Positions 24,206 to 58,132 of a stretch of 64,000 bases of DNA are shown here, piece by piece. Under the pieces are notes generated by a model, which had not been told where the DNA came from, made no database searches, and worked only from the letters and a program-made list of their open reading frames with translations. Location of the stretch: positions 72,958-136,957 of the forward strand of contig JBMFOH010000001.1 of assembly GCA_049969715.1 (NCBI GenBank), written 5' to 3'. This stretch comes from a bacterium. GTDB lineage: Bacteria; DUMJ01. Positions within the stretch are counted from its first letter, which is position 1. The number at the start of each line of letters is the position of its first letter. The translations under genes and the position numbers were made by a program.

Positions 24206-24218
24206 GAGGTGAAAGGTT

Positions 24219-25109: not shown

Positions 25110-28927
<3,818 letters not shown>

Positions 28928-35838: not shown

Positions 35839-35848
35839 AAGAGGTAAA

Positions 35849-38696: not shown

Positions 38697-39043
38697 ACTA
38701 TATATTGTTATTGGCTTCTCTGGTCTCTAATGCCTTGGCAAACGTATTTATAAAGGCCGGAATGAAGGATTATAGTGAAGGCATCAGCCTTAAGATGTTT
38801 TTCTATATACTAAGAAGTCCATTTGTTGTTGTAGGGCTCTTATTCTTTGTCGGTGCATTCATCGGCTATAGTTTTTTGCTTTCTAGGATGCAGCTGAGTA
38901 TCGCCTATCCTATAATGACTGGGGCAGGTTTTGCTATTGTATGTGTACTTTCTTATCTTTGGTTTAACGAAAATTTCAGCGTTCTAAAGGTCTTTGGCAT
39001 CTTACTTATCTTTATCGGTATAGTCTTCCTTTCTAGAGGATAG
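38693..39043 (+). CDS. small 4-TM EamA/SMR-like membrane protein (ArnE/ArnF-like flippase subunit candidate)
   Basis: 116 aa, four hydrophobic helices. ATGA overlap with the upstream gene. Confidence 0.55.
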   Translation: MNYILLLASLVSNALANVFIKAGMKDYSEGISLKMFFYILRSPFVVVGLLFFVGAFIGYSFLLSRMQLSIAYPIMTGAGFAIVCVLSYLWFNENFSVLKVFGILLIFIGIVFLSRG

Positions 39044-39057
39044 TTTTATTTTTATTG

Positions 39058-39066
39058 TGTTATAAT
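39058..39066 (+). promoter_or_regulatory. extended -10 promoter element (TGtTATAAT)
   Basis: TGTTATAAT is about 45 nt upstream of the ATG at 39109, with an AAGGAGGGG RBS. Confidence 0.35.
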
Positions 39067-39108
39067 AAAACTGAAAATTAAAATTCTAATGGTAAGGAGG
39101 GGAATATT

Positions 39109-41191: not shown

Positions 41192-41222
41192 GGGGATAGC
41201 CTAGAGGCTATCCCCTTTTTTA
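41192..41222 (+). terminator. intrinsic terminator
   Basis: GGGGATAGCC-TAGA-GGCTATCCCC followed by TTTTTTACTTTTT. The loop overlaps the herA-like stop codon. Confidence 0.7.
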
Positions 41223-42913
41223 CTTTTTATCCTTCTTATCAGATCGATCTCAGATATCATAAATGAATCTGTTCTATATTCTGATTCTTTACTCTCTTCA
41301 TACCTTGTAGCCCAGGCAGGCATAGGAAACCTTATAAGAACCGTTTGGGGTAGATTCGGCTGATAAACAAGCATCTGTCCAGGTATTAGATATTGAACCC
41401 TTCTTTTATTTAATGGACCTAGATAATCATATTCACTGTGCTCCGCCTCACTAGCATCCATATTGCCGCACACTCTTATAGATGCGTTTGATACAACCCT
41501 ATGAGATACTTCACTAGCAGTTTGCTGTGCTCCTACCAGTATTATCCCTAAACTTCTTCCTCTTTCAGCTATATCGAGGACGGTATCTGCGATGGGACTT
41601 TCTCCTGTTTGAGGAGCATATTTATTGAGTTCGTCAAGAACTATAAATACCAAGGGCCAAGGTGTTCCAGATTCCTCCTTCTTTTCTACTATAGATTTAA
41701 GGACTGCGCCTACAGTAAAATATTGAGCCCTTGGTGTAAGTCTGTGAATATCTATCACATTTACCTGGGCTTCCTCCCAATCTATTCTATAATCTGTTTC
41801 CTCAAAGGGTAAAGACTCAGGCAGTATCAGTGAGCCTATATCGTGTTCAGCCCTATACAACCTTCTTATAAATGCATCTCGAGTGGATTGAGCAACCCTT
41901 CCAAGAATATCATCTATATTGTCTTCTAATGTCTTTACCATACTTTCAATAGACTGAAATCCAAACTCTCCACTCATCTCTTTATTAAGCCAGTTAGTAG
42001 CCAATTTTATTGCCAAATACAGCTGACTTGTATCAGAGAGATCTTTAGGAGAGAATAGATACCAGAATAAGTCTTGAGTTGCAATATCTTTTATAGTCCA
42101 GGCAAAAGGCTTTACTCCATCCATTCTACTTTCAGTATTTGGTAGGACCTCTTCATACTGCCCTCTCCTTGGCCTGGGAGGAGCATAGAATCTTACACTT
42201 CCAAATGGTTTTGGCTCAAGTCCCATAATTTCATATATCTTTTTCTCCTGGTCACTTAACATTACATTTGGTTTATCCAAGAATAAGAGGTCTTCTCCCT
42301 TTACGTTGAATATTACTGCATGAGTATTCCTAAGTCCTGCTGCCGGATAGGCACTTAGAACCTCTTTAAGTTTTGAAAAGAATGAGTAGAGTAAAAATGT
42401 GGCATAAGAGGTCTTAGTTGCTACACCACTCTTACCGCTTATATTTATATGGGCACCTTTCATCCCAAGGAGAAAGTCTAGGTCTATGTATGCAGGGGCA
42501 TTGTTAGAAAGTACTCCACAAGGTATCCTTCTTTTACCCATCGTATCATAATAAAGGGCAAACTCTGTGTCTTGAGCAGTAGCCAATCTTACCTCTTTCC
42601 CAGGCTTTGGAGGGACCTTTGGACTGCTTCCATCATCTGCCAATGTCCTAGTAGCTACTACGTGACAGTAATATGTAAGGTTGGCATCAAAGAGTCCTTG
42701 AGAATGAAATCTTGCCTGTTCATTAGTCTCTATCCCTTCTAATTTATGAATTACCTGATCTACAATTCCATATATCGTTACATTCCCAAACCTAGGATAC
42801 TCACATGAGGTTACTACAATATCATCGACTTGAACAGCGTAATCTGAATTTACCTCTATATAAAATTCAAATGGGGTTGCATCCTTAGTTCCTAATACTA
42901 TTCCTATTGCCAT
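41201..42913 (-). CDS. herA: HerA-like (FtsK/HerA superfamily, DUF87-type) ATPase
   Basis: 570 aa. N-terminal HAS-barrel-like segment (GIVLGTKDATPFEFYIEV...VDDIVV), a P-loop-like ISGKSGVATKTS, a Walker-B-like FIVLDELNKY and a C-terminal GIILVGAQQ block. Confidence 0.65.
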   Translation of the reverse strand: MAIGIVLGTKDATPFEFYIEVNSDYAVQVDDIVVTSCEYPRFGNVTIYGIVDQVIHKLEGIETNEQARFHSQGLFDANLTYYCHVVATRTLADDGSSPKVPPKPGKEVRLATAQDTEFALYYDTMGKRRIPCGVLSNNAPAYIDLDFLLGMKGAHINISGKSGVATKTSYATFLLYSFFSKLKEVLSAYPAAGLRNTHAVIFNVKGEDLLFLDKPNVMLSDQEKKIYEIMGLEPKPFGSVRFYAPPRPRRGQYEEVLPNTESRMDGVKPFAWTIKDIATQDLFWYLFSPKDLSDTSQLYLAIKLATNWLNKEMSGEFGFQSIESMVKTLEDNIDDILGRVAQSTRDAFIRRLYRAEHDIGSLILPESLPFEETDYRIDWEEAQVNVIDIHRLTPRAQYFTVGAVLKSIVEKKEESGTPWPLVFIVLDELNKYAPQTGESPIADTVLDIAERGRSLGIILVGAQQTASEVSHRVVSNASIRVCGNMDASEAEHSEYDYLGPLNKRRVQYLIPGQMLVYQPNLPQTVLIRFPMPAWATRYEESKESEYRTDSFMISEIDLIRRIKSKKGDSL

Positions 42914-43902
42914 CTTTGACCTCCTTTGTGGGCTTCTGCTATAAGTCTTCTCAATGTTACCCTTATATGATCTAGAGGATGAAACATTGCCCTAAGTCTT
43001 CTCTCTAGACTTTCTAAGGGTGCTAGATTCTCTGGAGCCCTGCTACTTAAAGTGTTGCTACTAGCCAAGGTTGGTAAGAGGTACCCTGAGAATTGCGCTA
43101 AGTCTATTACCTCTTCTAATGTTAAATTTGAGGGGGCTTCCAATCTTACCAGTCCTAAAAATTGGTGTTCAAAATACTGAGGGTCTTTTAGTCTTAGATA
43201 CCAAGAATATTTTAATGGCAGGTCCTCTGATGTTTCTATAAGAAATACAGGTGTCCTCTCTCCTCTCCTTAATGAGACTAGTGTCTCCCAACATCTACCT
43301 GTAAGATAGTATCTACGGGTACTTTTTACAAAACCTAAAGTGACCCCTGTTTTAGAAAACGGCACCTGTAATGGTCCATCAGCAATTACAGTATAACCCA
43401 TCATAGATAGTTTTAGTGCTGTTTCCTTTTCTCTTTCTCTCATCTTTTGAAGAAACATTCTGTATATACCCTCGTCCCCTGTTTCTACTGCATTTACTGG
43501 TTCATATCTTGCCTTCCCCAAAAGAAGGGGACTATTTACTGTTATCCCTGGAGGGAATACTATTATACATTCTGCCTGGTTTCTCTCCATCACCTTACCC
43601 TTACTTAGATCAAATGCCCCAACTACGAACTCTCCAAGCAGTGCAGACCTACCTGAGTTACCAATCATAAGATGGGTATCTGTTCTACGAACCCCGTCTA
43701 CCAAGGCTACCTTATCTATTACTACTTTTCTATCTATCTTTATAGGTCGCCAGTTTTTCCCCTCTAGTTCTACGTCTTGATTTACCCTTACCGGTAGGGT
43801 CTCATTATTCAGGTCTACTGGGTCATCTAAGGTATCATTCCACCAGGTTTGAGATATCTCGAACCTTTTTATAAACTCAATTGCCGAACTATCTAATTTC
43901 AT
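42904..43902 (-). CDS. NurA-like nuclease candidate (HerA partner)
   Basis: 332 aa and Arg-rich. The gene is translationally coupled to the ATPase gene (10-nt overlap) and carries hhhDG motifs (ALVDGV, VIADGP). The assignment rests on context and weak motifs. Confidence 0.4.
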   Translation of the reverse strand: MKLDSSAIEFIKRFEISQTWWNDTLDDPVDLNNETLPVRVNQDVELEGKNWRPIKIDRKVVIDKVALVDGVRRTDTHLMIGNSGRSALLGEFVVGAFDLSKGKVMERNQAECIIVFPPGITVNSPLLLGKARYEPVNAVETGDEGIYRMFLQKMREREKETALKLSMMGYTVIADGPLQVPFSKTGVTLGFVKSTRRYYLTGRCWETLVSLRRGERTPVFLIETSEDLPLKYSWYLRLKDPQYFEHQFLGLVRLEAPSNLTLEEVIDLAQFSGYLLPTLASSNTLSSRAPENLAPLESLERRLRAMFHPLDHIRVTLRRLIAEAHKGGQRWQ

Positions 43903-47516: not shown

Positions 47517-48578
47517 ATGAATCATGCTAGAAAGGAAAGAGTTGAGAATTATCTAAGAGCGATAAATTTTCAACATCCAATATGGATACCTAGCAGGGTT
47601 AGTATTATGCCTGCTACTTGGAGAAAGTATCGAGAGGCTTTAGAAGAAATTGTTCTTAGACATCCTAAGATATTCCCCGATTACAGAAAGGGAAGCGTAG
47701 ACTTTGATGCAGTGAGTGATCCAGGATACCGTAAGGGAAAATTTAAAGACAGCTGGGGATGCGTATGGGAAAATATAGAAGAGGGGTTAGAAGGAATAGT
47801 TATAGAGTCTCCACTAGATGATTGGGAGAAGTTTGATAGTTATATTCCACCAGACCCTATAGTGCAGGAAGAAAGAGGAGGGGAACTAGACTGGGAAAAG
47901 GCTAGAGAAGTATTGAGAGAAAGAAAACTTAGGGGAGAATTAGCTACAGGTGGACTACGTCACGGATTTATGTATATGAGACTTTACTACCTTAGAGGTT
48001 TTGAGAATCTTATGATAGATATAGCAACAGAAGACCCAAGATTAGAGAGACTGATAGATATGGTTCTTGAATATAATATAAAGCTTATAAAGAAATGGAT
48101 CGATGTAGGGGCAGAATTCCTATACTTTGGAGACGATTTAGGAAATCAAGATAGGCTCCCGATAAGTCCTGAGAAATGGAGAAGATATCTAAAGCCATGT
48201 TATAAAGAAATGTTTGGTTTATGTAGAGAAAACAATGTCTATGTTTATTTCCATACCGATGGTCATATCCTAGAGATTGTAGATGACTTGATAGAATGTG
48301 GAATAAATGTATTGAACCCACAGGTAAGAGCGAATACGATAGATGGGCTAGTAAAGACAGCAAAAGGTAAGGTGTGTATAGATTTAGACCTAGATAGACA
48401 GTTATTTCCATTTGCCACACCTAAAGAGATAAGAGAACATATAGAAGAGGCAGTGAGAAGATTAAACAGCCCGAATGGTGGTTTGATTCTTATGGCTGAA
48501 TGTGAGCCAGATGTTCCTCTTGAGAATATAGATGCTATATGTAGTGTATTAGAAGATGTCGGAGGGCCATCGGTATAG
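47517..48578 (+). CDS. uroporphyrinogen decarboxylase (URO-D) family protein
   Basis: 353 aa with a URO-D-like TIM barrel. Exact function unclear (MtaA/CmuA-like is possible). Confidence 0.6.
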   Translation: MNHARKERVENYLRAINFQHPIWIPSRVSIMPATWRKYREALEEIVLRHPKIFPDYRKGSVDFDAVSDPGYRKGKFKDSWGCVWENIEEGLEGIVIESPLDDWEKFDSYIPPDPIVQEERGGELDWEKAREVLRERKLRGELATGGLRHGFMYMRLYYLRGFENLMIDIATEDPRLERLIDMVLEYNIKLIKKWIDVGAEFLYFGDDLGNQDRLPISPEKWRRYLKPCYKEMFGLCRENNVYVYFHTDGHILEIVDDLIECGINVLNPQVRANTIDGLVKTAKGKVCIDLDLDRQLFPFATPKEIREHIEEAVRRLNSPNGGLILMAECEPDVPLENIDAICSVLEDVGGPSV

Positions 48579-49148
48579 GGTTATCTTGTATCTTTTCTCT
48601 CTTTCTATAACTACTATAGTATTATGGGAGATGTCAAGGTTCCAGTATGTATTACCAGTAGAGCCTATTAGGTCAAATATAAGTGCTTTTATAGGTCCTG
48701 CATGTGTGACTACTAAGATATCCTGAGATTTATTACTCTGAAACATCTCCTCTATTGCAGCTCTTACTCTATTGGCAAGTTCTTTTAGGGTCTCTCCATT
48801 GGGAGGAGACACTGTCCAGGGGTCTTTTTGCCACATCTTGAATAGTTTTGAATCCTCTTCCATCTCAAAGATAGATTTTCCTGTCCAGTTACCAAAGTCC
48901 ATTTCTCTAAGAGATTCTTTGTATGTGATGTTTTGGAGATCTAACTCTTTTGCTATAATCTCTGCCGTCTCCTTTGCCCTAGTTAGGTCACTTGAATATA
49001 TAATAGAGACCCTCTTACCTTTAAATGCAGAAGCTAAAACCTTGGCTTCTTTTCTTCCCAGTTCATTTAGAGGTATATCTTTTTGCCCCTGATATAATCC
49101 GTTTTTATTCCAATCTGTTTCTCCATGCCTTACAAGGTATATCTTCAT
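48549..49148 (-). CDS. cobC: alpha-ribazole phosphatase (histidine phosphatase family)
   Basis: N-terminus MKIYLVRHGETDWN (RHG catalytic motif). Last gene of the cob salvage operon. Confidence 0.7.
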   Translation of the reverse strand: MKIYLVRHGETDWNKNGLYQGQKDIPLNELGRKEAKVLASAFKGKRVSIIYSSDLTRAKETAEIIAKELDLQNITYKESLREMDFGNWTGKSIFEMEEDSKLFKMWQKDPWTVSPPNGETLKELANRVRAAIEEMFQSNKSQDILVVTHAGPIKALIFDLIGSTGNTYWNLDISHNTIVVIEREKRYKITLYRWPSDIF

Positions 49149-49855
49149 AATATCAACAGGGTAATTAATTCAGTTATTTCACATATAGCACCATACATAT
49201 CCCCTGTAAGTCCTCCTATCCTTCTAGTAAGATATAATCCTATTAGATATCCTATAATAATTACAGCAAAAAATGCAAGTAATCCCTTCTCCCCTCCTGT
49301 TAAAAGACCCAGTACTAGAGTAATAGCTCCAGAAAAGATGATATCTCGTTGGGTTAATACGTTAGAGAATATACTCCCCTTTCCCTCCTTCCTTCCGTAT
49401 GGGAAGAGATAGATGGAAAGAGTTATTAGAAACCTTCCATATATAGGAGCCACTATAACTCGTGTATAAGCGTTATATCCCTCTCCCAAGGAGAGAAACT
49501 TAAGTGTTAGCAGAAAGAATATTGCTAGTGCACCCATTGTGCCTATCCTACTATCCCTCATAACCTCTAAGATACTTTCTCTGTCCTTTCTGCTAAGAAT
49601 ACCATCAAAGGTATCTGCTAGTCCATCTATATGGATACCACCAGTTATACCCTCCCAAGCTAGGATAGTAAGCATTATAGATATCCAGTACCCAGTAATT
49701 CTAGAAAAGAAGAATAAGAAAAGGGATAGGCTAAGACCTAGAAAAAATCCAACTAAGGGGAAAACTCTTGGGCTTTTTGCTAAAGCCCTCTCGTCTGTGC
49801 TTCTATTTATAGGCACAATTGTGAGAAATTTTAGAGCCTCGAGAAACTCATTCAC
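49145..49855 (-). CDS. cobS: adenosylcobinamide-GDP ribazoletransferase (cobalamin synthase)
   Basis: CobS-like TM protein. I prefer the GTG start at 49855 (MNEFLEALKFLTIVP) because it has an AGGAG RBS and overlaps the cobT stop by 8 nt. The ORF-track start at 49903 would overlap cobT by 56 nt. Confidence 0.75.
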   Translation of the reverse strand: MNEFLEALKFLTIVPINRSTDERALAKSPRVFPLVGFFLGLSLSLFLFFFSRITGYWISIMLTILAWEGITGGIHIDGLADTFDGILSRKDRESILEVMRDSRIGTMGALAIFFLLTLKFLSLGEGYNAYTRVIVAPIYGRFLITLSIYLFPYGRKEGKGSIFSNVLTQRDIIFSGAITLVLGLLTGGEKGLLAFFAVIIIGYLIGLYLTRRIGGLTGDMYGAICEITELITLLIL

Positions 49856-50906
49856 CCTTTGAAACTCCTGCCTCTTCGAATGTGAGCATATTATAGTAGG
49901 CATTTAGGGCACAGTCTATAATTATCATCCCTATAGCTGAACCAGTGCCTTCACCAAGTCGCATATCTAAGGTAAGCATCGATCTAAGACCCATTTGGTC
50001 TAGGGCTATCTTATGTCCTGGTTCTTGGGATAGATGCGAAGGTATGATATAGGGAAGGACATCTGGCGTAATCTTGTAAGCTAATAATGCTCCGATCGTA
50101 GAGATAAATCCATCTATTACCACTGGCTTTCTAAGATAAGCACACCCTATGACGAGTCCTGCTATTGCTCCTATCTCTAGTCCCCCTACCTTCTCTAGCA
50201 CATCAATAGGGTCATTAGGATTTGGTTTATGAAGCCTTATTGCTTCACTTATAACTGTTCTTTTCTTCTTTATACCCTCTTTATCTAATCCTGTCCCAGC
50301 ACCTACTATTGAATCTAAAGATACATCCTTAGCAAATACACTAAGTATAGCAGTAGATGGGGTTGTATTCCCTATCCCCATCTCACCTGTCCCTACGATG
50401 TCTATCTTCATTTTATCTAATTCTTCTGCCATCTGGATACCAACCTCTATACATTTTATGGCTTCATCTCTAGTCATAGCTGGCTCTTGAGAGAAGTCAT
50501 TTGTCCCATGTCTTACATTATAATTCCTGAATGAAGGGTGGTTAAATTCAACAGGATGAGCTATCCCTACATCTACCACAAAAACCTCTGCGTTGGCTCT
50601 AGATGCAATAGCATTTATTCCTGCTCCTCCATTTAGAAAATTCCTTACCATCTGAACGGTTACCTCTTGGGGATAGGCGCTGACTCCCCTTTTTACGATT
50701 CCATGGTCTCCAACCATTATTACTATAGCCTTTTTGTTTATCTTGGGAGAGGGGTCTCCTCTAATCCCAGCTAATTGGACTACTATCTCTTCCAACCTTC
50801 CTAAACTCTTACGGGGCTTTGTTAAGCTATCCCATCTCTTCCATGCCTTTTCTTGGGCATCCTCTACTAATGGTCTTATATTAGACACTATTTCATCAAG
50901 TTTCAT
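49848..50906 (-). CDS. cobT: nicotinate-nucleotide--dimethylbenzimidazole phosphoribosyltransferase
   Basis: 352 aa with conserved CobT blocks (GIGNTT, ...GE.GIG). Confidence 0.85.
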   Translation of the reverse strand: MKLDEIVSNIRPLVEDAQEKAWKRWDSLTKPRKSLGRLEEIVVQLAGIRGDPSPKINKKAIVIMVGDHGIVKRGVSAYPQEVTVQMVRNFLNGGAGINAIASRANAEVFVVDVGIAHPVEFNHPSFRNYNVRHGTNDFSQEPAMTRDEAIKCIEVGIQMAEELDKMKIDIVGTGEMGIGNTTPSTAILSVFAKDVSLDSIVGAGTGLDKEGIKKKRTVISEAIRLHKPNPNDPIDVLEKVGGLEIGAIAGLVIGCAYLRKPVVIDGFISTIGALLAYKITPDVLPYIIPSHLSQEPGHKIALDQMGLRSMLTLDMRLGEGTGSAIGMIIIDCALNAYYNMLTFEEAGVSKGE

Positions 50907-51405
50907 TCTTTACCTCCATGGGAATTCCTGCCACCATAAAGTAAACCTTCTGGGCTAGTTTTGCAAATATCTGATTAACCTTTCCTAATGTATCCCTATA
51001 CCTTCTTGCCAGAGGATATTCTGGAACTATACTGAGTCCAACCTCATTAGAAACTACAATTACCTTCTTATCTATAGACCTAACATATTGAGCTATCTCT
51101 TCTGCCATTTCTACTATATGTTTATCTGGATACTTCTCTATCAGGTTAGATACCCAGAGTGTAAGGCAATCTAAGATTATACAGTCCTCTTTTACCACTT
51201 TTATGGCACTCATTATATCCTCTGGAGCTTCTATAGTTTTCCAGTGCGAAGGCCTTTCAATTTTATGCCTTTCTATCCTCTCTTTCATCTCCTCATCTAA
51301 GGGTAATGCGGTGGCTATAAAAGCCACCGCATCGCCCTTACTAAGTTCCAATGCGAAGCTACTCTTTCCACTTCTAGCTCCGCCAATGATAAATACTAAA
51401 CTCAT
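50896..51405 (-). CDS. cobU: adenosylcobinamide kinase / adenosylcobinamide-phosphate guanylyltransferase
   Basis: 169 aa with P-loop GGARSGKS. Confidence 0.85.
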   Translation of the reverse strand: MSLVFIIGGARSGKSSFALELSKGDAVAFIATALPLDEEMKERIERHKIERPSHWKTIEAPEDIMSAIKVVKEDCIILDCLTLWVSNLIEKYPDKHIVEMAEEIAQYVRSIDKKVIVVSNEVGLSIVPEYPLARRYRDTLGKVNQIFAKLAQKVYFMVAGIPMEVKNET

Positions 51406-52298
51406 TTGAACAACTCTGGATGTAAGTACTTTGCTATTATCTCTAAGGCATCAACCAGTCTTGGGCCTGGCCTAAAGATGATATTATCATCTATAGTAAA
51501 AATTCTTCCCTCTTTAACAGCCTTTAGAGATGACCATCCTGGACGAGTAGCTACATTAAGGGGACCTGCACCCATACTTGATGCTGCCCCTATAATAACA
51601 TCTGGGTCTTCCTTGATTAACTCCTCAAGACTGAATATAGGATAAGGTGTCTTTGCATTTCCAGCTATATTTATTCCTCCAGCCTTTTTTATTAGGTCAT
51701 CTACAAATGAACCTGGGCCTACACTCATCAAAGGTTCATGCCAAAGTTCAAAGAATACCTTTGGTTTTTGTTGAGCCTTTTTGACCCTACTTACTACAGT
51801 AGAGACCCTGAACTTTAGGTTAAAACCTAAGTCTCTCGCTACCTTATCTTGTCCTGTTATATGTCCTACCTTGTATATAGTAGTTATAACATCATCTATT
51901 GTTTTGGGGTCTATTACATACACAGTGATTCCTAGCTGCTGGAGTTTTTCTACGATCGGCATCTGTATCCCTCCAGTAGCTAAAACTAGGTCAGGTTTTA
52001 GGGAGAGGATTTTTTCTACATTTGGAGCCTGGAAATCTCCTATCTTCTCCTTCTTAGTAGCCTCTTTTGGATAGTCACACCATGTTGTTACTCCCACTAC
52101 CTTGTCTCCTAGTCCTAACGAAAAGAGTATCTCTGTATTGGCTGGAGCAATAGAAATGATCCTCTGTGGTAATCTGGAAATGATAACAGTACGCTTTGCA
52201 TCATCCCTTACCTTTAATGGAAATTCTGCTCCAAACACAGTATTTACTAGTAAGGACATAGAAATGAGCAAAATAATACCTATTATAAATCTTCGCAA
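51402..52298 (-). CDS. btuF: ABC transporter periplasmic substrate-binding protein, cobalamin/siderophore (BtuF-like) class
   Basis: 298 aa with a signal peptide and a class III SBP. TTG start with a GGAGGG RBS. First gene downstream of the B12 riboswitch. Confidence 0.7.
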   Translation of the reverse strand: MRRFIIGIILLISMSLLVNTVFGAEFPLKVRDDAKRTVIISRLPQRIISIAPANTEILFSLGLGDKVVGVTTWCDYPKEATKKEKIGDFQAPNVEKILSLKPDLVLATGGIQMPIVEKLQQLGITVYVIDPKTIDDVITTIYKVGHITGQDKVARDLGFNLKFRVSTVVSRVKKAQQKPKVFFELWHEPLMSVGPGSFVDDLIKKAGGINIAGNAKTPYPIFSLEELIKEDPDVIIGAASSMGAGPLNVATRPGWSSLKAVKEGRIFTIDDNIIFRPGPRLVDALEIIAKYLHPELFK

Positions 52299-52429
52299 TT
52301 TTATCCCTCCTAACGAAATAATAGACTAATAGAAACGCCTGTAGAACCTTACTAGTATTTCATTCTATGGACTTCTAATATGCTCCATAAAGGTGTCAAC
52401 CTCCTTTCCTCGAAGGAATTGACATATTC

Positions 52430-52565
52430 TGATAGGCAGGTCTCCTGGCTCCTGGCATCGACCTTGTGCCTTCCCAGTTTCCCAGTGGCATATACAAGGC
52501 CCTTTAAGTCAGTTACAGTAGCGGGACTGCAGTGGATTTTCACCACTTTCCCTTTTCATCTCTGA
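52430..52565 (-). promoter_or_regulatory. cobalamin (AdoCbl) riboswitch
   Basis: The minus-strand RNA reads AAAAGGGAAAGUGGUGAAAAUCCACUGCAGUCCCGCUACUGUAACUGA ... AUGCCACUGGGAAACUGGGAAGGC ... GCCAGGAGCCAGGAGACCUGCC. This matches the B12-element consensus, including the B12 box AGCCAGGAGACCUGCC and the GCCACUG motif. Confidence 0.85.
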
Positions 52566-52637
52566 TAAGAGAACCTATCAGATTATGTACTAGAGAGTAT
52601 GATACTATTTTCCTCTCTCAAAATCAAGCAAGATATT

Positions 52638-53390
52638 CTATATCAGATTGGCTTCTATTAGAAATTCTTGGTCTGAGAATATACTCCTATAATCTCCAGT
52701 TTTTAAAATCTCTTTATTCTCTCCTAATACATATATCTTATCTGCTATATCTGGAATTATCTTTAGGTCATGGGTAGCAGTTATGATTGTTTTATTTTCG
52801 TTGCGGAACCTTTTGATAAATTCTAGTAGTTCCCTGACACTTCTTGGGTCTAGCCCATTAGTTGGTTCGTCTAATAGAAGTACAGTAGGTTCTATAACAA
52901 GTAGACTTGCCAATGCTATTTTCTTCTTCTCCCCCTCACTCAATTGATAGGGTGACAAGCCTAATAGGTGCGAGATACGGAAGAAGTCTGCGGTTTCTTT
53001 TATTCGTTCTTTTATCTTATTGGGGTCAAGCCCAAGTTGAATAAGGCCAAAGGCTATCTCATCCTCAACAGTAGGAGAGAAAAGCTGAGCGTTTACATCC
53101 TGAAAGAGTAAGACTACGTTTCTTCTAAAGAATCTATTAAATTCAGGGTCATCAAAACTCTTCTCTGTTATATCCCTTCCAAATGCATATATAGAACCTC
53201 TAGATGGAAAGATAAGCCCATCTAACAGTTTTAAGAGGGTCGTCTTCCCCGAGCCATTTGCTCCGATGATAGCAACACTCTCTCCTCTTTCCACCTCCAT
53301 GTTTATAGAGGCAAGGGCAAATCTATGGTTTAAATACGAGTAACTTACATTACTAAGTTTAAATATCAGCCTTTGGTCTAACCCTTCCAA
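52638..53390 (-). CDS. cbiO: ECF/ABC transporter ATP-binding protein (CbiO/NikO/LarO-like)
   Basis: 250 aa with Walker A GANGSGKTT, signature LSEGEKKKIA and Walker B LLLDEPT. Confidence 0.75.
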   Translation of the reverse strand: MEGLDQRLIFKLSNVSYSYLNHRFALASINMEVERGESVAIIGANGSGKTTLLKLLDGLIFPSRGSIYAFGRDITEKSFDDPEFNRFFRRNVVLLFQDVNAQLFSPTVEDEIAFGLIQLGLDPNKIKERIKETADFFRISHLLGLSPYQLSEGEKKKIALASLLVIEPTVLLLDEPTNGLDPRSVRELLEFIKRFRNENKTIITATHDLKIIPDIADKIYVLGENKEILKTGDYRSIFSDQEFLIEANLI

Positions 53391-54540
53391 TAGCTTGATT
53401 TATGACCTCCTTCATTATATCCTGTACAGGTAATCCCGTCTTTTCAGCAATAACCTTACAATCATCATATTCTGGCGTTATCTTGGGTGTATCGTCTATA
53501 TAAGAGACCTTTACCTTAGCTATCCCCCATGGGGTATCAACTTCTATTATTTCTCTAGGTAGCATAACCTTCTCTACCTCATACATCCTAACCCCAATAG
53601 AGGTCGTCTCTCTAAATATTATGTCCACGATACTGTTTATCGCATCCTTTGGAGAAATGACAGTAAGCTTTACCGCTGGCCTAGACTTTTTCATATATAT
53701 TGGTGTAAAGAAGACATCGAGTGCTCCAGCACTAAATAACCTATCCATAATATATCCATAGATCTGTGGATTCATATCGTCTATGTTTACATCTATAATC
53801 GTATTTGTATCCCTCTGTTTACTATAATAGAGCTCCCCTATAATAGCTCTTACCATATTTGGTATAGGGAAATCCTTTTTGCCTACCCCATATCCTATCC
53901 TTTCCACTGTAATAAATGGTATCTCTCCAAATCTATAGGTGAGGGTAGAGATGATCCCTGCCCCTGTTGGTGTAACAAGCTCTCCTTTTATACCATTAGA
54001 ATATACTGGAACACCCTTTAATAACTCTACAGTAGCGGGTGCGGGAACAGGAAGCCTTCCATGAGCAGTTTCAATAAATCCTTCTCCCAAAGGCAGAGGA
54101 GAACTGTATACCCTTTCTATACCGAGGAGCTTCAACCCTAACACGCTTCCTACCACGTCTATTATAGTATCTATTCCTGCCAATTCGTGAAGATGGACCT
54201 CTTCTATACTCTCTCCATGGATCTTAGCCTCACTAGATGCGATCTTGTATAATATATTGAGACTTTTCTCTTTTGTACCCTCTTCAAGATCACTTTTTTC
54301 TATAATCTCTAGGATATCCTTTGCGTGTCTATGGGTAACATTGTCTTCTACGATTACATTAACACTTGTTCCAGTTAGAGCCTTCTTCTTTACCCTTGAG
54401 ATTTCTATTCTGTAACCTTTGAGATGGAGTTTTCCTAGCTCTTTTTCCCAGGGTTCTCTATCAAGTCCTAGATCAAAGAGAGCACCAAGAAGCATATCTC
54501 CACTTATCCCATTGAAACAATCCAGATATATAGCCTTCAT
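53359..54540 (-). CDS. larC: nickel-pincer cofactor biosynthesis nickel insertion protein LarC
   Basis: The N-terminus MKAIYLDCFNGISGDMLLGALFDLG is the LarC/DUF111 signature. 393 aa. Confidence 0.85.
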   Translation of the reverse strand: MKAIYLDCFNGISGDMLLGALFDLGLDREPWEKELGKLHLKGYRIEISRVKKKALTGTSVNVIVEDNVTHRHAKDILEIIEKSDLEEGTKEKSLNILYKIASSEAKIHGESIEEVHLHELAGIDTIIDVVGSVLGLKLLGIERVYSSPLPLGEGFIETAHGRLPVPAPATVELLKGVPVYSNGIKGELVTPTGAGIISTLTYRFGEIPFITVERIGYGVGKKDFPIPNMVRAIIGELYYSKQRDTNTIIDVNIDDMNPQIYGYIMDRLFSAGALDVFFTPIYMKKSRPAVKLTVISPKDAINSIVDIIFRETTSIGVRMYEVEKVMLPREIIEVDTPWGIAKVKVSYIDDTPKITPEYDDCKVIAEKTGLPVQDIMKEVINQAIGRVRPKADI

Positions 54541-54541
54541 A

Positions 54542-55294
54542 TTATTCTCCTTTCATATGATTTATCATACTGGCCAGATAACCTGCTCCAAATCCATTGT
54601 CTATATTTACCACTGATAAGCCAGGAACACAGCTATTTAACATAGTTAAGAGTGCAGATAGACCCTTAAAGTTAGCCCCATAACCTACACTTGTAGGTAC
54701 CCCAATTACAGGTTTATCTACAAGCCCAGCCACAACACTTGGAAGTGCCCCTTCCATTCCAGCCACTGCTACTATCACATTTGCCTTTCTTATCCTTTCT
54801 AGGTTGTCAAGCAATCTGTGGAGCCCTGCAACCCCTACATCGTATACTTTCTCCACATAGTTTCCCATAATAAGTGCTGTTTCAACTGCCTCCTCTGCTA
54901 TCGGAAGGTCAGCGGTACCTGCACTTATGACTGTTATATGCCCTATAGGGTCTATGTGAGTTTTTGATATAGTAATAGTTTTAGCCAATTCATTGTATCT
55001 AGCCTCAGGGATATCTAAGACTACCCTATTAAATACCTCTTCTTCCGCCCTAGTAGCCAATACTTTAGAATTTCTAGAGGCTAGTCTTTTTATAATCTCT
55101 ACCGACTGATCTATCTTCTTCCCTTGGCAGAAGACTACCTCAGGAAACCCCTTTCTTAAAGCCCTATGATGGTCAAGACGAGCATATCCTAGGTCTTCAT
55201 AGGGAAGAAGAGTAAGTTTCTCTATTACCTCCTCTATACCTATATTCCCTTCCTTTAGATTTAATAGTAATTCTTTAAGTAACTCCTTATTCAT
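54542..55294 (-). CDS. larB: pyridinium-3,5-biscarboxylic acid mononucleotide synthase LarB (PurE-like)
   Basis: 250 aa with a PurE-like fold and ISAGTADLPIAEEA. Confidence 0.85.
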   Translation of the reverse strand: MNKELLKELLLNLKEGNIGIEEVIEKLTLLPYEDLGYARLDHHRALRKGFPEVVFCQGKKIDQSVEIIKRLASRNSKVLATRAEEEVFNRVVLDIPEARYNELAKTITISKTHIDPIGHITVISAGTADLPIAEEAVETALIMGNYVEKVYDVGVAGLHRLLDNLERIRKANVIVAVAGMEGALPSVVAGLVDKPVIGVPTSVGYGANFKGLSALLTMLNSCVPGLSVVNIDNGFGAGYLASMINHMKGE

Positions 55295-56103
55295 AAAAGT
55301 CCCTTCTTTACGCCTATATTCATACTTCCAGTTTTATAACCCTCTAGGTCCATAGTGATATAAGAGTAGCCTATCTCTTTTAAATATTTTACTATATCCT
55401 CTCTGTATTTTAACAGTTTCTCCATATCTTCAGACAGGACTTCTATCTTAGCGAGATTTCCAAAGTGCCTTAGTCTCACTTGCCTAAATCCTAAATCCAT
55501 TAGTATCCTTTCTCCTCTATCTATCTTTGATAATATTTCTTGAGTAAGTTTTTCTCCATAAGGCACCCTGGTTGCTAGACATGCCAGAGGAGGTTTATCC
55601 CAGGTAGAAAGCCCCAACTCTTTCGATAACATCCTTATCTCTAGTTTTGTAAGTCTAGCATCTTTTAATGGGCTTATTATCCCAAGTTCTTTTAGTGCTT
55701 TTATCCCAGGCCTATAGTCAGTAATATCATCTGCATTAGAACCATCAGCCACAGTATATATATGATATTTTTTAGCCATCTCTTTTATGAGAGAAAAAAC
55801 TTTCACCTTACAGTAGTAGCATCTATCAGGAGGATTACTAGCTATCATCTCATCGTTAAGGACGTCGATATCTATTATCTCCTGTTTTACTCCTATCTCC
55901 TTTGCTAGAGCCTTTGATTCTTCTATCTCCCACCTGGGATGAATCTGTCCAGATACCGTAACTGCTACAACATTATTTCCTAGAACCATACTACTTACCT
56001 TTAATAGGAATGTACTATCTACACCCCCAGAAAATGCAACAACGAGTCTATCATAATTTAAGAGTATATTCTTTAACGCTTCAAACTTCTCTACATATTC
56101 CAT
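55291..56103 (-). CDS. larE: ATP-dependent sacrificial sulfur transferase LarE (PP-loop ATP pyrophosphatase)
   Basis: PP-loop VVAFSGGVDST and the conserved Cys segment PPLACLATR. Confidence 0.85.
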   Translation of the reverse strand: MEYVEKFEALKNILLNYDRLVVAFSGGVDSTFLLKVSSMVLGNNVVAVTVSGQIHPRWEIEESKALAKEIGVKQEIIDIDVLNDEMIASNPPDRCYYCKVKVFSLIKEMAKKYHIYTVADGSNADDITDYRPGIKALKELGIISPLKDARLTKLEIRMLSKELGLSTWDKPPLACLATRVPYGEKLTQEILSKIDRGERILMDLGFRQVRLRHFGNLAKIEVLSEDMEKLLKYREDIVKYLKEIGYSYITMDLEGYKTGSMNIGVKKGLL

Positions 56104-56894
56104 CCTAATCTCCTATCAATATATAGAATAACTATATTTAAAATTACTGTTAAGCCTAGAGCTAGGATATCAGAAAAATACACCTTGCTAGAATTTAAGT
56201 ATCTTATATTTTTGTTGACACCTCTAGAGACCATACCTTGATAGACCTCTCTACTAAGCTGTTGGGTCTTTATCGCTAGGACCCCAACCGTTGAACCTAG
56301 CCACTGCTGTTCTCTTCTGGTATCTGTTATTATAGTTCTCATCTTTTTTGCTAGGAATAGATTCTCTGCGGTCTCTAAGAGGAGGAAGATATACCTATAA
56401 CTCATACTGATGATACTTACAAATACATTAGGTACTCCTATATATCTTAGAGAAAAGAGGAGCTTTGTCCATCTTGTAGTGAGAATGACAAGAGTCACAT
56501 AAGAGATAGATGTTGCCACCCTCAGGACAAGACGCACCATAACAACCAATCCTTCTATAGTAAATCCAAATTCGAGCCTCCCTGGTACTATAAACAGAGA
56601 GGGAATAGCGATTACTAACGTAAATATAGGTATGAATATCCAGACCTTTCTGAAAAATAATGCAAGATTTATCTTACTAAGATAGGCTAGGAGTATGCTA
56701 AAAAGATAGAGTAATAATAGAGAGTAAATATTTGTCATAAGGCTTATTCCGATGATAAAGATGATCAAAGATATAACCTTTACAGGTTCATTTAACCTTG
56801 ATATAAATGAATCTGGCATATAATCTACTATAAAAGCCTCCTTTAAGAAGGAGGCCATCTCTTTTAATGTCTTATCTAATACGTTCCTACTCAA
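56091..56894 (-). CDS. cbiQ: ECF transporter transmembrane (T) component CbiQ/NikQ-like
   Basis: 267 aa, about 5-6 TM helices, CbiQ-like. Confidence 0.7.
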   Translation of the reverse strand: MSRNVLDKTLKEMASFLKEAFIVDYMPDSFISRLNEPVKVISLIIFIIGISLMTNIYSLLLLYLFSILLAYLSKINLALFFRKVWIFIPIFTLVIAIPSLFIVPGRLEFGFTIEGLVVMVRLVLRVATSISYVTLVILTTRWTKLLFSLRYIGVPNVFVSIISMSYRYIFLLLETAENLFLAKKMRTIITDTRREQQWLGSTVGVLAIKTQQLSREVYQGMVSRGVNKNIRYLNSSKVYFSDILALGLTVILNIVILYIDRRLGWNM

Positions 56895-56896
56895 GG

Positions 56897-57217
56897 TTAT
56901 CTCCTAGATAATGCCCTTCCTATGAGAAACGCTACACCTGCTACTATTCCTACTCCAATAAGTCCTGAGATTATATATCCTATGCTCTGATAGGTAAGAG
57001 GCTTCCCCTCCCATCCCTTTAGATTATAGTCTGGAAGTAAAGGCCTTCCTAGGGATGAAAGTCTTTCTAGACCTGCTGGCACATATCCGATAAGTTCCTT
57101 TATCTCGTCTGGACCCCATTCCCCCCAAGCTGAGCCAGCCTTTACTAGGTATGGGATAATAATTCCCAATGGAGAAAGAATGACTAGTAAGATTATTATC
57201 TTCCAAAGTCTATGCAT
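56897..57217 (-). CDS. small membrane component of Ni/Co ECF transporter (CbiN/NikN- or PDGLE-domain-like)
   Basis: 106 aa with TM helices at both ends flanking a soluble segment (GEWGPDEIKELIG). Sits between the cbiM and cbiQ genes. Confidence 0.5.
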   Translation of the reverse strand: MHRLWKIIILLVILSPLGIIIPYLVKAGSAWGEWGPDEIKELIGYVPAGLERLSSLGRPLLPDYNLKGWEGKPLTYQSIGYIISGLIGVGIVAGVAFLIGRALSRR

Positions 57218-57886
57218 ACTCCCACTCCTTTATAAAATTCGTCCTCAATAGATAGGCTAATGCAGCCATAGTTACTATGGCTTCTACCCAACCAAAAATT
57301 ACAAGATGTTCTCCTAACATAGCAGGTACCGTAATAGAAAGAGGATATGGAGAATATAGAGGGACCCCTTTATCAGTATGACTTATCAAAGGTTGTAATC
57401 CAAGCTCTATACCTGCAAATAGAGCTGCTACATTCAGCCCAACATACCCTCCTATTCCTGCTGCTATTATCCTTCTTTTTGAATTTAAAGGGCTATTCCC
57501 ACTTATCAACTTATATGTATAATATCCGACAAATGGAAGGATAAAACCCATATTGAAACAGTTAGCTCCAATAGCAGTGATCCCTCCGTCTCCAAAGATA
57601 AGGGCTTGAATTACAAGAACAATAGTAATAACTATTAATGTTGCCCATGGACCTATAAGAATAGAGAGGATCATCCCACCAACTGCATGTCCTGTAGTAC
57701 CTCCTGGGATAGGTACATTAAACATCATAATGACAAAAGAGAATGCTGCTCCAAGGGCAATCAATGGTACCTGAGACATCTTTAAGGTCTTATTCAAAAC
57801 CTTACTTGCCTTGAACCATAAAGGTATCATTACCCCAAACATCGTCCCATATGTCTGAGGGCCTAAATACCCATCAGGGATATGCA
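57210..57886 (-). CDS. cbiM: Ni/Co ECF transporter substrate-specific component CbiM/NikM
   Basis: I prefer the GTG start at 57886, giving the canonical MHIPDGYL N-terminus needed for metal coordination. A GGAGGTG RBS lies 5 nt upstream. The ORF-track start at 57914 adds 9 residues. Confidence 0.8.
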
Positions 57887-57899
57887 CAATATCACCTCC

Positions 57900-57955
57900 A
57901 AAAATAAAGACCACAAAAGTCTCCTAGCTCATCTAGGATATTGACCTTCGTGGTC
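57900..57955 (-). promoter_or_regulatory. terminator-like hairpin in the cbiM leader (candidate attenuator)
   Basis: Minus-strand RNA: GACCAC-gaaggucaaua-UCCUAG-augag-CUAGGA-gacuuuu-GUGGUC-UUUAUUUUU, immediately followed by RBS GGAGGUG and the GTG start. Confidence 0.4.
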
Positions 57956-58132
57956 TTAAATTTTGCTATATTAAACTATTAAGATTATACACGAAAAAAG
58001 GTAACAGTGCAAGGGAAGTAGGTGTGAAAGGTAAAAAGTTATACGTGATTCTCTTTTCCTCTATGTCCCAATTTATAACTGTGGTATCATAATATTAAAG
58101 CTTAAAATTAATCTTGAAAGGAGTGAAGAAAA

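Follow-up and report, generated by a model that had tools for sequence, protein, structure and literature searches.

Why do genes for the synthesis of the nickel-pincer cofactor lie inside an operon for a metal importer, and which enzyme would use the cofactor when no gene for the lactate racemase LarA adjoins them? Both questions are raised by seven same-direction ORFs (52638-57887, minus strand) in a 64-kb window, the whole stretch of DNA analysed here. Their order, cbiM-N-cbiQ-larE-larB-larC-cbiO, and their place on the minus strand are as an earlier note had given them; of its span, 52638-57886, the start held, while the end lies one nucleotide further out, at the GTG start (57887).

57210-57887, minus strand: cbiM/nikM, substrate-capture (S) component of an ECF metal importer, N-terminus MHIPDG (PF01891, 198 bits; NF008873, 330 bits, cut-off 225)
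56897-57217, minus strand: nikN-like small membrane protein of the PDGLE type, partner of NikM (PF13190, 32.6 bits, cut-off 27)
56091-56894, minus strand: cbiQ/nikQ, ECF transmembrane (T) component (TIGR02454, 131.5 bits, cut-off 111.8; PF02361, 95 bits)
55291-56103, minus strand: larE, ATP-dependent sulfur insertase of the predicted [4Fe-4S] (CXXC-C) type (TIGR00268, 324.8 bits, cut-off 150)
54542-55294, minus strand: larB, NaAD carboxylase/hydrolase for the first step of cofactor synthesis (NF033503, 300.4 bits, cut-off 175)
53359-54540, minus strand: larC, CTP-dependent nickel insertase (PF01969, 478 bits; TIGR00299, 206.9 bits; NF052512, 153.2 bits)
52638-53390, minus strand: cbiO/nikO, ECF ATPase overlapping the end of larC (PF00005, 101.5 bits)

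The proposed lar and transporter identities thus survived profile searches, and several details could be refined. The longest ORF for cbiM spans 57210-57914; the actual start is the GTG at 57887-57885, which lies 5 nt past a Shine-Dalgarno sequence (GGAGGTG) and opens the (M/V/L)HIPDGYL N-terminus found in 77/77 CbiM homologues examined. The nikN-like protein corresponds to the segment 231-318 of NF005598, a model for fused CbiM-PDGLE proteins, and LarC1 and LarC2 are joined in one larC ORF. LarE carries SGGVDS at residues 25-30 and only three cysteines (C95, C98 and C175), which by the motif of PMC9283937 is the signature of the [4Fe-4S] CXXC-C type. Indeed, the predicted enzyme shares with the Thermotoga maritima-type LarE of that study the SGGXDS PP-loop and the CXXC-C triad with no further cysteines, although it lacks the fourth cysteine, as do most homologues. 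For NikO, the highest-scoring NCBIfam models describe ECF ATPases, yet the scores fall under the equivalog cut-offs (211 versus 330 bits). It is 61-66% identical to its counterparts in the canonical M-N-Q-O operons L085 and L092, about as similar as NikM is to canonical NikM (65-67%), and NikO is therefore the cognate ATPase.

The packing of these genes is as tight as had been claimed, with junctions from +2 to -32 nt (in order from cbiM to cbiO: -8, +2, -13, -4, +1 and -32) and ribosome-binding sites placed within the preceding genes. For example, the Shine-Dalgarno sequence (AGGAG) and ATG of larE sit within the final cbiQ codons, and the conserved NikO N-terminal IFKL starts within the final larC codons. 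Therefore, the importer would be complete only if the whole lar block were transcribed and translated through to nikO. Three independently assembled MAGs of the species share this gene order with 100% identity, and a distinct relative (L084) has it too; it is therefore neither an assembly artefact nor chance. We consider it highly probable that a single operon here unites a nickel importer with the three enzymes of nickel-pincer cofactor synthesis. Judging from family membership, NikM would capture Ni(II) via its N-terminal Met-His, aided by NikN, while NikQ and the NikO dimer would energise import. LarB would carboxylate and hydrolyse NaAD, LarE, as a three-cysteine [4Fe-4S] type, would add two sulfur atoms by catalytic turnover with no cysteine sacrificed, and LarC would insert nickel as one polypeptide.

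A divergent GH38 gene forms the upstream boundary of this operon, and three further elements frame it.

57984-58012, minus strand: promoter-like element (TTGCAC at 58012-58007, 17-nt spacer, TG-TATAAT at 57991-57984)
57901-57957, minus strand: structured 5' leader (21-bp hairpin at 57957-57907, then a U-rich tract, directly before the Shine-Dalgarno sequence)
52418-52593, minus strand: cobalamin riboswitch marking the 3' boundary (RF00174, 117.9 bits, gathering score 31.5)

The promoter-like element was read straight from the sequence; its -35 hexamer fits only 3 of 6 positions, and a consensus scanner overlooked it. It is kept in L084, where the sequence farther upstream is not. The leader hairpin is terminator- or attenuator-like, with a minimum free energy of -33.3 kcal/mol (z = -5.9; 0/200 shuffles fold equally well), two G.U pairs and, in L084, a compensatory replacement of one U-A pair by C-G. 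An Rfam search of the leader gave no match at E <= 1, and none of the other 75 cbiM homologues examined has the hairpin in front of it. There is no NikR-like sequence anywhere in the 64-kb window, and we infer that control of the operon may be unlike that of its relatives, with a conserved promoter and a terminator-like hairpin leader instead of the typical NikR gene. Another conserved hairpin lies within the 5' end of cbiQ (56856-56835); together with the leader terminator it could allow parts of the unit to be expressed independently, which counts against its reading as a single unit. At the other end, no terminator was found after nikO, making readthrough into the downstream riboswitch possible; the riboswitch has its own promoter-like site, 44 nt past the nikO stop, and heads the next operon, btuF-cobU-cobT-cobS-cobC.

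Is the imported metal nickel or cobalt? The NCBIfam titles of the M and Q components call them cobalt transporter proteins, and the cobalamin riboswitch with its btuF-cobUTSC operon lies immediately downstream, as it might if the ECF module were a cobalt importer (CbiMNQO) for the neighbouring cobalamin genes and its fusion to lar incidental. These names, the adjacent cobalamin-salvage operon and the score of NikO under its equivalog cut-offs are among the points that speak against our overall explanation. However, the riboswitch is positioned after nikO rather than ahead of nikM, where an RNA-family search found no B12 riboswitch; the downstream genes serve cobalamin salvage and remodelling, which requires no cobalt; and expression of the ATPase gene must run through larEBC. 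The N component is of the PDGLE type and not CbiN, and homologous operons are accompanied by NikR: among the 67 homologous loci for which 600 nt or more of upstream sequence was available, 35 contain a NikR-like gene, which in 9 cases immediately precedes cbiM. Several homologous ATPases bear His-rich C-terminal tails, and in eight loci (L038, L040, L057, L076, L077, L085, L098 and L115) lar genes stand right beside an unbroken M-N-Q-O or M-Q-O block. A cobalt importer is thus very improbable. Since homologous M-N-Q-O operons often have NikR and the present cbiM has no B12 riboswitch ahead of it, the importer is best read as putatively nickel-specific, in agreement with the earlier naming of it as a nickel ECF transporter.

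How unusual, then, is the interleaving of this nickel importer with larEBC? In Lactiplantibacillus plantarum, Desguin et al. reportedly described in 2014 a larA-larB-larC-larD-larE operon plus a larR(MN)QO transporter operon, and we confirmed the larA-B-C-(D)-E order in two Sporolactobacillus loci (L043 and L069). The present operon has the same three cofactor enzymes linked to an ECF-type nickel importer (NikM and PDGLE-N, Q, O), yet it lacks larA, larD and larR, it encodes M and N in two genes and not in a fused one, its LarC is one ORF, its LarE is predicted to be an Fe-S enzyme and not a sacrificial one with a single cysteine, and its lar genes lie between Q and O rather than in a separate operon. 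Compared with NikR-regulated NikMNQO operons, its M (MHIPDG), PDGLE-N, Q and O share 34-67% identity with their counterparts in 38 contiguous M-N-Q-O operons, of which many have NikR; unlike these, it is split by three biosynthetic genes, has a hairpin leader upstream in a NikR-free window, and encodes an ATPase without the His-rich tail of some homologues.

Against those 38 contiguous homologous loci, comparison of related genomes revealed one other interleaved locus, L084. Among the loci compared, the interleaved order is thus derived and rare, apparently confined to the source species and one sister lineage, and by this comparison would have arisen through a rearrangement, specific to the lineage, of two modules that usually stand apart or at most side by side. 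The closest relatives carry larEBC alone; in five of them (L004, L005, L006, L008 and L009) larE-larB-larC directly follows a metallophosphoesterase gene orthologous to one in the present window.

23666-25840, plus strand: block of a 179-aa protein, an M48 peptidase and a metallophosphoesterase, the ancestral larEBC neighbour in related species

L084 has its interleaved operon 3.8 kb past the orthologous metallophosphoesterase gene, next to the ancestral lar neighbourhood and not at a transporter site. A transporter operon interrupted by lar genes, as the locus had been described, is therefore accurate in placing the lar genes inside the transporter set, but the direction of evolution that it implies is not fixed by the data.

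Which enzyme, then, would use the cofactor? No client is encoded in the operon itself. The LarA families PF09861 and PF21113 had no match in window ORFs of at least 250 aa, nor did a LarA HMM match the six-frame translation, bearing out the claim that no canonical LarA lies within more than 10 kb on either side; nor was one found in the ~8.8 kb past the right window edge. This absence covers ~73 kb, about 52 kb on one side of the operon and 15 kb on the other. The earlier note had thought the missing neighbour worthy of remark, but it is ordinary, the rule rather than the exception, and already known: of 42 LarC loci flanked on each side by 8 kb or more, 35 had larB and larE, 27 of them with no LarA-like gene, and ~15% of genomes have larBCE without larA (PMC11796402). 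Having LarC, LarB and LarE with no LarA within 20 ORFs, the features by which such clusters were sought in published work (PMC13524815, PMC11796402), the present locus resembles those from which non-LarA nickel-pincer enzymes have been mined (PMC13524815).

One reading, which we rate a little short of an even chance, is that the user of the cofactor is a canonical LarA-family (DUF2088) racemase or epimerase encoded elsewhere in the genome, and that the DUF362 protein described below plays no part. A LarA homologue lies within 8-10 kb in only 9/42 fully flanked LarC loci, the organism is saccharolytic with many sugar-acid-related genes, and Thermotoga-type gluconate epimerase LarA homologues exist (PMC7583248). 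Against it, none appeared in the 64 kb plus 8.8 kb, a limited span, or within 10 kb of larEBC in the five related species. The sugar isomerases and epimerases to which the earlier note drew attention are present, but these and the oxidoreductases of the window are ordinary enzymes with intact NAD-binding motifs, including the dinucleotide-binding motifs of the NAD-type oxidoreductases near the operon. The note's remark that none looks LarA-like did not hold, however: a DUF362 protein of LarA-like fold is encoded 16 kb from the nickel operon, within a sugar-lipid glycosylation operon, and DUF362 and LarA belong to the same Pfam clan (PMC11770544).

34948-35838, plus strand: UbiA-family polyprenyl-phosphate phosphoribosyltransferase of the DPPR/PPPR synthase type, first gene of this operon (NF008977, 278.6 bits, cut-off 234; NF008978, 207.8 bits, cut-off 207)
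35849-36925, plus strand: DUF362 protein with LarA-like fold, hypothetical nickel-pincer client
36912-38696, plus strand: GT-C-type (PMT_2/ArnT-like) membrane glycosyltransferase (PF13231, 33.1 bits, cut-off 26.1)
38693-39043, plus strand: SMR-family small membrane protein, candidate lipid-linked-sugar flippase, overlapping the GT-C stop codon by 4 nt (PF00893, 37.4 bits, cut-off 23.7)

This protein is the leading candidate client in the window, and we tentatively propose that it epimerises the polyprenyl-phospho-ribofuranose made by the UbiA-type synthase, with the SMR flippase and the GT-C enzyme acting afterwards. The overlapping operon resembles three-component pentofuranose systems and mycobacterial DPR-to-DPA conversion (PMC11127046) in its synthase, GT-C transferase and SMR flippase, but differs in having no HAD/PAP2 phosphatase, SDR epimerase or DprE1/DprE2, and in placing a DUF362/LarA-fold protein between synthase and transferase. 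An hhalign alignment anchors P52, P58 and D209 on LarA P78, P84 and D242, and H158 and K168 on H174 and K184 with equal 10-residue spacing, at a probability below 2% that counts against it; neither these residues nor H180/H183/H187 vary among 121 close homologues. On the other hand, the equivalent of LarA H108 is Gly/Ala, the LarA segment with His200 falls into a gap of the extended alignment, and there is no LarA_C domain.

Genomic context likewise points both ways. Distant DUF362 genes (~20% identical) follow larE-larB-larC in 6/6 Verrucomicrobiota loci, all of them exopolysaccharide clusters, and their products keep the H-x9-K-N motif, with PHH 14-15 residues past the Lys. UbiA-DUF362 pairs are adjacent in 5/8 distinct contexts across labelled phyla, the GT-C gene likewise follows DUF362 in three loci (L171, L173 and L174), one Edwardsbacteria MAG has both UbiA-DUF362 (L172) and larB-larC (L012), and L170 has a NikR-NikMNQ unit at a distance of 4 kb from its DUF362 gene. 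However, DUF362 genes of the present subfamily never adjoin lar genes in the loci examined, and the LarA family is known to act on 2-hydroxy acids, not on lipid-linked sugars.

The same operon could instead be read with the DUF362 protein as the missing 5'-phosphatase, or another His/Asp metal enzyme, and the cofactor going to a non-LarA client elsewhere, of the AKR (NphT) or ornithine-cyclodeaminase type. The three-component pathway requires a phosphoribose 5'-phosphatase (PMC11127046) that the operon does not otherwise encode, the invariant His, Asp, Lys and Arg could bind metal or phosphate, and non-LarA clients are documented (PMC13524815). We find this unlikely: unlike the clusters of NphT and the NPAD-dependent cyclodeaminase, the present locus has no AKR (PF00248) or cyclodeaminase in the window or flank, the Verrucomicrobial lar-DUF362 linkage would be left unexplained, and the only enzymes in which the LarA fold has so far been seen are hydride-transfer epimerases.

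The DUF362 candidate is no more likely than a client encoded elsewhere in the genome, be it a canonical LarA homologue or another enzyme; it differs from the known non-LarA clients in being a relative of LarA and not an unrelated fold. If the DUF362 protein does use the nickel-pincer cofactor, it would do, as a single redox-neutral enzyme, the work of DprE1/DprE2 or of the SDR auxiliary epimerase.

Seven minus-strand open reading frames spanning 52638-57914 (longest-ORF limits) make up the operon, in which the genes for nickel-pincer nucleotide (NPN) biosynthesis are interleaved with those of a metal importer. The gene order and tight packing described for this locus in the earlier note are accurate, with junction spacings along the operon of -8, +2, -13, -4, +1 and -32 nt (thus from +2 to -32 nt). 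The lar assignments also stood up to profile searches: LarE (324.8 bits with TIGR00268, whose cut-off is 150) and LarB (NF033503, 300.4 bits against 175) both exceeded their equivalog cut-offs, while LarC matched PF01969 at 478 bits, TIGR00299 at 206.9 bits and NF052512 at 153.2 bits, with LarC1 and LarC2 contained in a single ORF. By profile membership, LarB, LarE and LarC are therefore predicted to constitute the NPN biosynthesis set. The transporter is represented by a CbiM/NikM S component (NF008873, 330 bits against an NCBIfam cut-off of 225), an N component of 106 aa (PF13190, PDGLE, 32.6 bits against 27) that gave no CbiN match, a CbiQ T component (TIGR02454, 131.5 bits against 111.8) and an ATPase (ABC_tran, 101.5 bits) whose top NCBIfam models are ECF ATPases, yet which scores below their equivalog cut-offs. 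Translation of cbiM begins at a GTG at 57887, 5 nt past GGAGGTG, yielding an N-terminus (MHIPDG) that places Met-His first and is common to all 77 CbiM homologues examined. Farther along, the larE Shine-Dalgarno sequence and ATG lie within the final codons of cbiQ, and the conserved N-terminus of the ATPase starts within the final codons of larC. Three MAG assemblies show this gene order in sequence that is 100% identical, and therefore the interleaved order is not an assembly artefact.

Architecturally, the operon is a rare variation on known modules. In the lactate racemase locus of the Lactobacillus plantarum type, larA adjoins larB, larC and larE and the transporter forms a separate contiguous block, whereas the window lacks larA and carries larE, larB and larC between the Q and O genes. 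Among 80 loci retrieved with LarC as the query, none outside the window's species showed the interleaved order. In the closest species (L004-L009, LarC 70-76% identical) larE-larB-larC stand alone, directly after a metallophosphoesterase gene that is part of a conserved block matching window positions 17336-25840. A further 80 loci were retrieved with CbiM (60-89% identical to the window's); of these, 38 had a contiguous M-N-Q-O arrangement, four had M-Q-O, and a single locus, L084 from a sister lineage, was interleaved, reading M-N-Q-E-B-C up to the contig end (identity to the window 89% for CbiM, 85% for LarB and 78% for LarC). In L084, 3.8 kb separates the unit from that M48/metallophosphoesterase block, which argues that the modules became interleaved close to the ancestral lar site; a subsequent rearrangement in the window's species shifted the unit 27 kb and onto the opposite strand. 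We had considered that larEBC itself moved 27 kb into a transporter operon, and dropped this reading because in L084 the interleaved genes adjoin the ancestral lar neighbourhood. As to how the modules were joined, larEBC may have acquired transporter genes around it, or a neighbouring arrangement like the M-N-Q-O-E-B-C of locus L098 may have been reshuffled. NikO (61-66% identical to canonical proteins) is as canonical-like as NikM (65-67%), and is therefore the cognate ATPase rather than a foreign gene. The result is a tidy and unsurprising case of metabolic streamlining, in which importer and cofactor assembly are forced into co-expression.

NCBIfam names for the transporter components specify cobalt; the evidence points instead to nickel, as judged from gene content and sequence. 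One argument is that the N component is of the PDGLE type, which we take to be NikN, rather than CbiN. Moreover, 35 of the 67 CbiM-homologue loci with at least 600 nt upstream include a NikR-like gene, which in nine of the 35 is directly upstream of cbiM, as in the NikR-CbiM-PDGLE-CbiQ arrangement of L170. Intact transporter blocks also adjoin lar genes in eight loci (L038, L040, L057, L076, L077, L085, L098 and L115). A B12-riboswitch-controlled CbiMNQO cobalt importer is very unlikely, given that the sole riboswitch is 3' of the ATPase gene, the leader matches no Rfam family and a PDGLE protein takes the part of the N component. Nickel is also favoured by the His-rich C-terminal tails (HxHxHKHKD...HxHxH) found on several homologous ECF ATPases (L087, 3152-3967; L124, 9658-10464; L135, 9792-10601); the window ATPase has no such tail. 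Examples of the NikR-like gene among L085-L163 and L170 are at 7532-7927 in L085, 7543-7935 in L092 and 6220-6639 in L170, and a gene ending '...TFTYTF' is conserved immediately before cbiM in many homologous CbiM-PDGLE-CbiQ-CbiO operons.

No NikR-like sequence was detected anywhere in the 64-kb window or at L084. In both, the usual place of NikR is occupied by a leader, which in the window is bounded upstream by a divergent GH38 gene.

Predicted control elements flanking the operon
58012-57984, minus strand: promoter-like TTGCAC-N17-TG-TATAAT in intergenic sequence
57957-57907, minus strand: 21-bp hairpin, U-rich tract, then the cbiM ribosome-binding site (-33.3 kcal/mol, z = -5.9)
52418-52593, minus strand: cobalamin riboswitch (118 bits), 44 nt past the ATPase stop

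The promoter is conserved in L084, where promoter and leader lie at about 6020-6140. The leader hairpin, which holds two G.U pairs, is nearly perfectly kept there with one compensatory U-A to C-G change, unlike the sequence 5' of the promoter, which has diverged between the two. An Rfam search of the leader returned no match, and it may represent a new attenuator or mode of nickel-uptake control. A second terminator-like hairpin, GCCTCCTT-loop-AAGGAGGC and then TTTATAG, is located in the 5' end of cbiQ (56835-56856, minus strand). Comparison with L084 shows a conserved stem, with variation in the loop and at nearby synonymous sites, and the hairpin could be an internal attenuator separating nikMN from the rest of the operon. 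At the other end, the cobalamin riboswitch has its own promoter-like site and heads a btuF-cobU-cobT-cobS-cobC salvage operon (48549-52298, minus strand). Therefore, with the riboswitch only downstream and served by its own promoter-like site, the lar/ECF unit is not expected to be under B12 control. No terminator was detected between the nickel/lar and cobalamin operons, so readthrough into the latter is possible.

The window LarE has the PP-loop SGGXDS motif (SGGVDS, residues 25-30) and only three cysteines, arranged as C95-Y-Y-C98 and C175 (CXXC-C), whereas C176 is the sole cysteine of Sporolactobacillus LarE. In Thermotoga maritima LarE, CXXC-C binds a [4Fe-4S] cluster that permits catalytic, not sacrificial, sulfur transfer (PMC9283937). 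By this motif the window LarE is predicted to be of the [4Fe-4S]-dependent catalytic subtype, and the 'sacrificial' label given by NCBIfam is probably wrong for it.

The earlier note's statement that no larA lies near the cluster was borne out, also just past the right edge: PF09861 and PF21113 gave no match from window position 1 to ~8.8 kb beyond that edge, the additional sequence being taken from a fourth MAG. This search combined precomputed annotation (43.6-64 kb), Pfam scans of the other ORFs and a six-frame translation searched with a LarA HMM. The HMM was narrow, being built from 12 Sporolactobacillus-type sequences, and could pass over divergent LarA-like genes, because it also missed the DUF362 relatives discussed below; the Pfam scans are the broader test. 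The lack of a nearby LarA is ordinary. Of the LarC loci, 42 had 8 kb or more of flanking sequence on each side; 35 of these included larB and larE, and 27 of those 35 had no LarA-like gene. Similarly, larBCE without larA occurs in about 15% of genomes, and Cyanobacteria are reported to make NPN without LarA (PMC11796402). That a cofactor made without LarA implies some other client, as the earlier note reasoned, is likewise already established in the literature: a 2026 study mined larBCE clusters without larA and demonstrated an AKR-fold nickel-pincer enzyme, citing in addition an NPAD-dependent ornithine cyclodeaminase (PMC13524815). Neither an AKR nor a cyclodeaminase was found in the window. 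As the NPN client, a canonical LarA encoded elsewhere in the genome is credible, if somewhat short of probable, and a little likelier than the DUF362 protein described below; use of NPN by another client type seems unlikely.

Two oxidoreductases of the window were considered as NPN enzymes and rejected; both have ordinary partners from an inositol pathway. The Zn-dependent dehydrogenase at 19136-20197 might have been a misannotated NPN enzyme, being 87-89% conserved and upstream of larEBC in relatives, but it retains the GMGPIG Rossmann motif together with the acidic residue, and its partner is an IolO-like epimerase. The GFO/IDH/MocA protein at 39109-40194 similarly retains an intact dinucleotide-binding motif. 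The former, an IolM-like Zn-dehydrogenase that is 87-89% identical in five related species as compared to 60-80% for its neighbours, belongs to a plus-strand group (17336-20197) along with a LacI regulator and an IolO-like TIM-barrel epimerase whose score, 285 bits, falls just short of the cut-off of 300.

One protein of the window does have a LarA-type fold, and was missed when the earlier note stated that none of the sugar-phosphate isomerases and epimerases looks LarA-like.

Candidate client and its operon
35849-36925, plus strand: DUF362 protein (PF04015, 87 bits)
34948-39043, plus strand: four overlapping genes encoding a UbiA-type synthase, the DUF362 protein, a GT-C transferase and an SMR protein

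DUF362 and the DUF2088 domain of LarA share Pfam clan CL0471, and DUF362 has served as the outgroup of the LarA tree (PMC11770544). For the window protein, the relationship to LarA was established by structure comparison alone. Its only match was to PF04015, with none to PF09861, PF21113 or the LarA HMM, and attempts to connect DUF362 with LarA by sequence (phmmer and hmmsearch against PDB sequences, local hmmsearch, and hhalign) either failed or gave probabilities <2%. In the low-probability profile alignment, residues invariant in both families serve as anchors (P52=P78, P58=P84, D209=D242), H158 falls on LarA H174, and K168 falls on the NPN-tethering K184 with the same spacing. The position of LarA H108 is Gly/Ala in DUF362, such that the catalytic two-His pair is not found in this alignment; single-histidine LarA homologues do exist (PMC12611868). 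The segment containing the Ni-binding His200 of LarA is a gap in the extended alignment, and H183 lies 15 residues past K168. Eight residues (K156, H158, H160, K168, R179, H180, H183 and H187) are invariant in 121 homologues (71-91% identical) from MAGs labelled as several phyla, and they are found together in a subgroup that takes in distant members and leaves out some close ones. When the LarA alignment was used to look for homologues, every protein recovered was a lactate racemase with 71-100% identity to the query, and the profile gained no depth.

Loigolactobacillus LarA proteins (P0175, P0176 and P0180) carry a precomputed PF04015 match besides PF09861 and PF21113, and since these are bona fide LarA, the two Pfam families therefore touch at the sequence level. 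The cyanobacterial model NF052623 ('Npun_F2552 family', cut-off 500) scored only 50 bits with the window DUF362 protein and 69.5 bits with the lar-linked DUF362 protein of the Verrucomicrobiota locus L019 (11234-12580). We found no paper linking DUF362 to NPN in the searchable literature, which is incomplete; the 'DUF362' mentions in PMC12423673 refer to DUF3623.

Gene context suggests a connection between the two. With a family HMM, each of the six Verrucomicrobiota loci in the LarC set, none of which contains LarA, was found to encode a DUF362 protein (PF04015, 105-111 bits) just 3' of larE-larB-larC.

Verrucomicrobiota loci pairing lar genes with DUF362
L013, L014, L015, L019, L022 and L046: at about 8.3-13.8 kb within each locus, DUF362 protein of 450-500 aa

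In some of these an acyl- or methyl-transferase gene intervenes between larC and DUF362. The loci are exopolysaccharide clusters with exosortase, several glycosyltransferases and WecG. Their DUF362 proteins are only ~20% identical to that of the window, with H-x9-K-N kept and a 'PHH' 14-15 residues past the Lys; in LarA, the nickel ligand is 16 residues past the tethering Lys.

The window's DUF362 gene also sits in a glycosylation context. Its operon encodes a decaprenyl-phosphate phosphoribosyltransferase of the UbiA family (278.6 bits with NF008977, whose cut-off is 234), a GT-C transferase (PMT_2, 33.1 bits against 26.1) and an SMR protein (PF00893, 37.4 bits against 23.7). All four genes are found together again in L171 and L173/L174, and UbiA and DUF362 are also neighbours in MAGs of Thermodesulfobacteriota (L168) and Edwardsbacteria (L172), for a total of five of eight distinct contexts; the Edwardsbacteria MAG carries larB-larC on another contig (L012). 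More distant homologues (P0002, P0007, P0012 and P0048) are on contigs too short or uninformative for context. Three-component pentofuranose systems comprise a synthase, a flippase (SMR or MATE) and a GT-C, and auxiliary epimerases (SDR or DprE1/E2) in such systems act on lipid-linked ribose (PMC11127046). The window operon resembles these systems in having a polyprenyl-phosphoribose synthase, a GT-C and, in the small SMR protein, a flippase candidate. Unlike them, the operon and its immediate flanks include no 5'-phosphoribose phosphatase, SDR or DprE1/E2, and DUF362 sits where the epimerase would be.

Nearby, two proteins of 570 and 332 aa without Pfam or NCBIfam match are encoded upstream of FloA/NfeD (41201-43902, minus strand) and have the same position in L171, L173 and L174. 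Compared with the window, the sister lineage represented by L173 (13309-15306) and L174 (13196-15307) carries an insertion between the SMR and GFO genes (window equivalent 39043-39109), with genes for an N6/N4 DNA methyltransferase and for a protein of 280 aa.

Based on fold, motif spacing and gene neighbourhood, we tentatively suggest that the DUF362 protein at 35849-36925 may be an NPN client. More specifically, it is possible, if doubtful, that DUF362 (PF04015) includes NPN-dependent sugar epimerases. Under this proposal, the DUF362 protein would receive its cofactor from the larEBC-nickel-importer operon and would epimerize polyprenyl-phospho-ribofuranose, giving a different pentofuranose donor that the GT-C glycosyltransferase would then use. 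Such an enzyme would offer anaerobes of several phyla a single-enzyme, cofactor-recycling alternative to DprE1/DprE2, and in Verrucomicrobiota a related DUF362 enzyme would be co-encoded with larE-larB-larC in the exopolysaccharide clusters. Against this, the residue alignment is weak, the window's subfamily never adjoins lar genes, and the known substrates of LarA are 2-hydroxy acids. Furthermore, a 5'-phosphatase is missing from the pathway as well, and DUF362 could supply that activity instead of epimerization.

The question in this field is which enzymes use NPN in the ~15% of genomes without LarA, for which two unrelated folds are known so far. The value of the operon is as a pointer, in that the window and the six Verrucomicrobiota clusters together nominate DUF362 as an NPN client family. 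What the analysis adds is this lead, in envelope pentofuranose glycosylation, together with a second and smaller one, the conserved terminator-like leader that stands in place of NikR. If the DUF362 proposal is true, nickel-pincer chemistry would reach from 2-hydroxy acids into envelope glycan biosynthesis, the missing epimerase of a widespread glycosylation pathway would be supplied, and a function would be provided for DUF362, a large family of unknown function with thousands of members.
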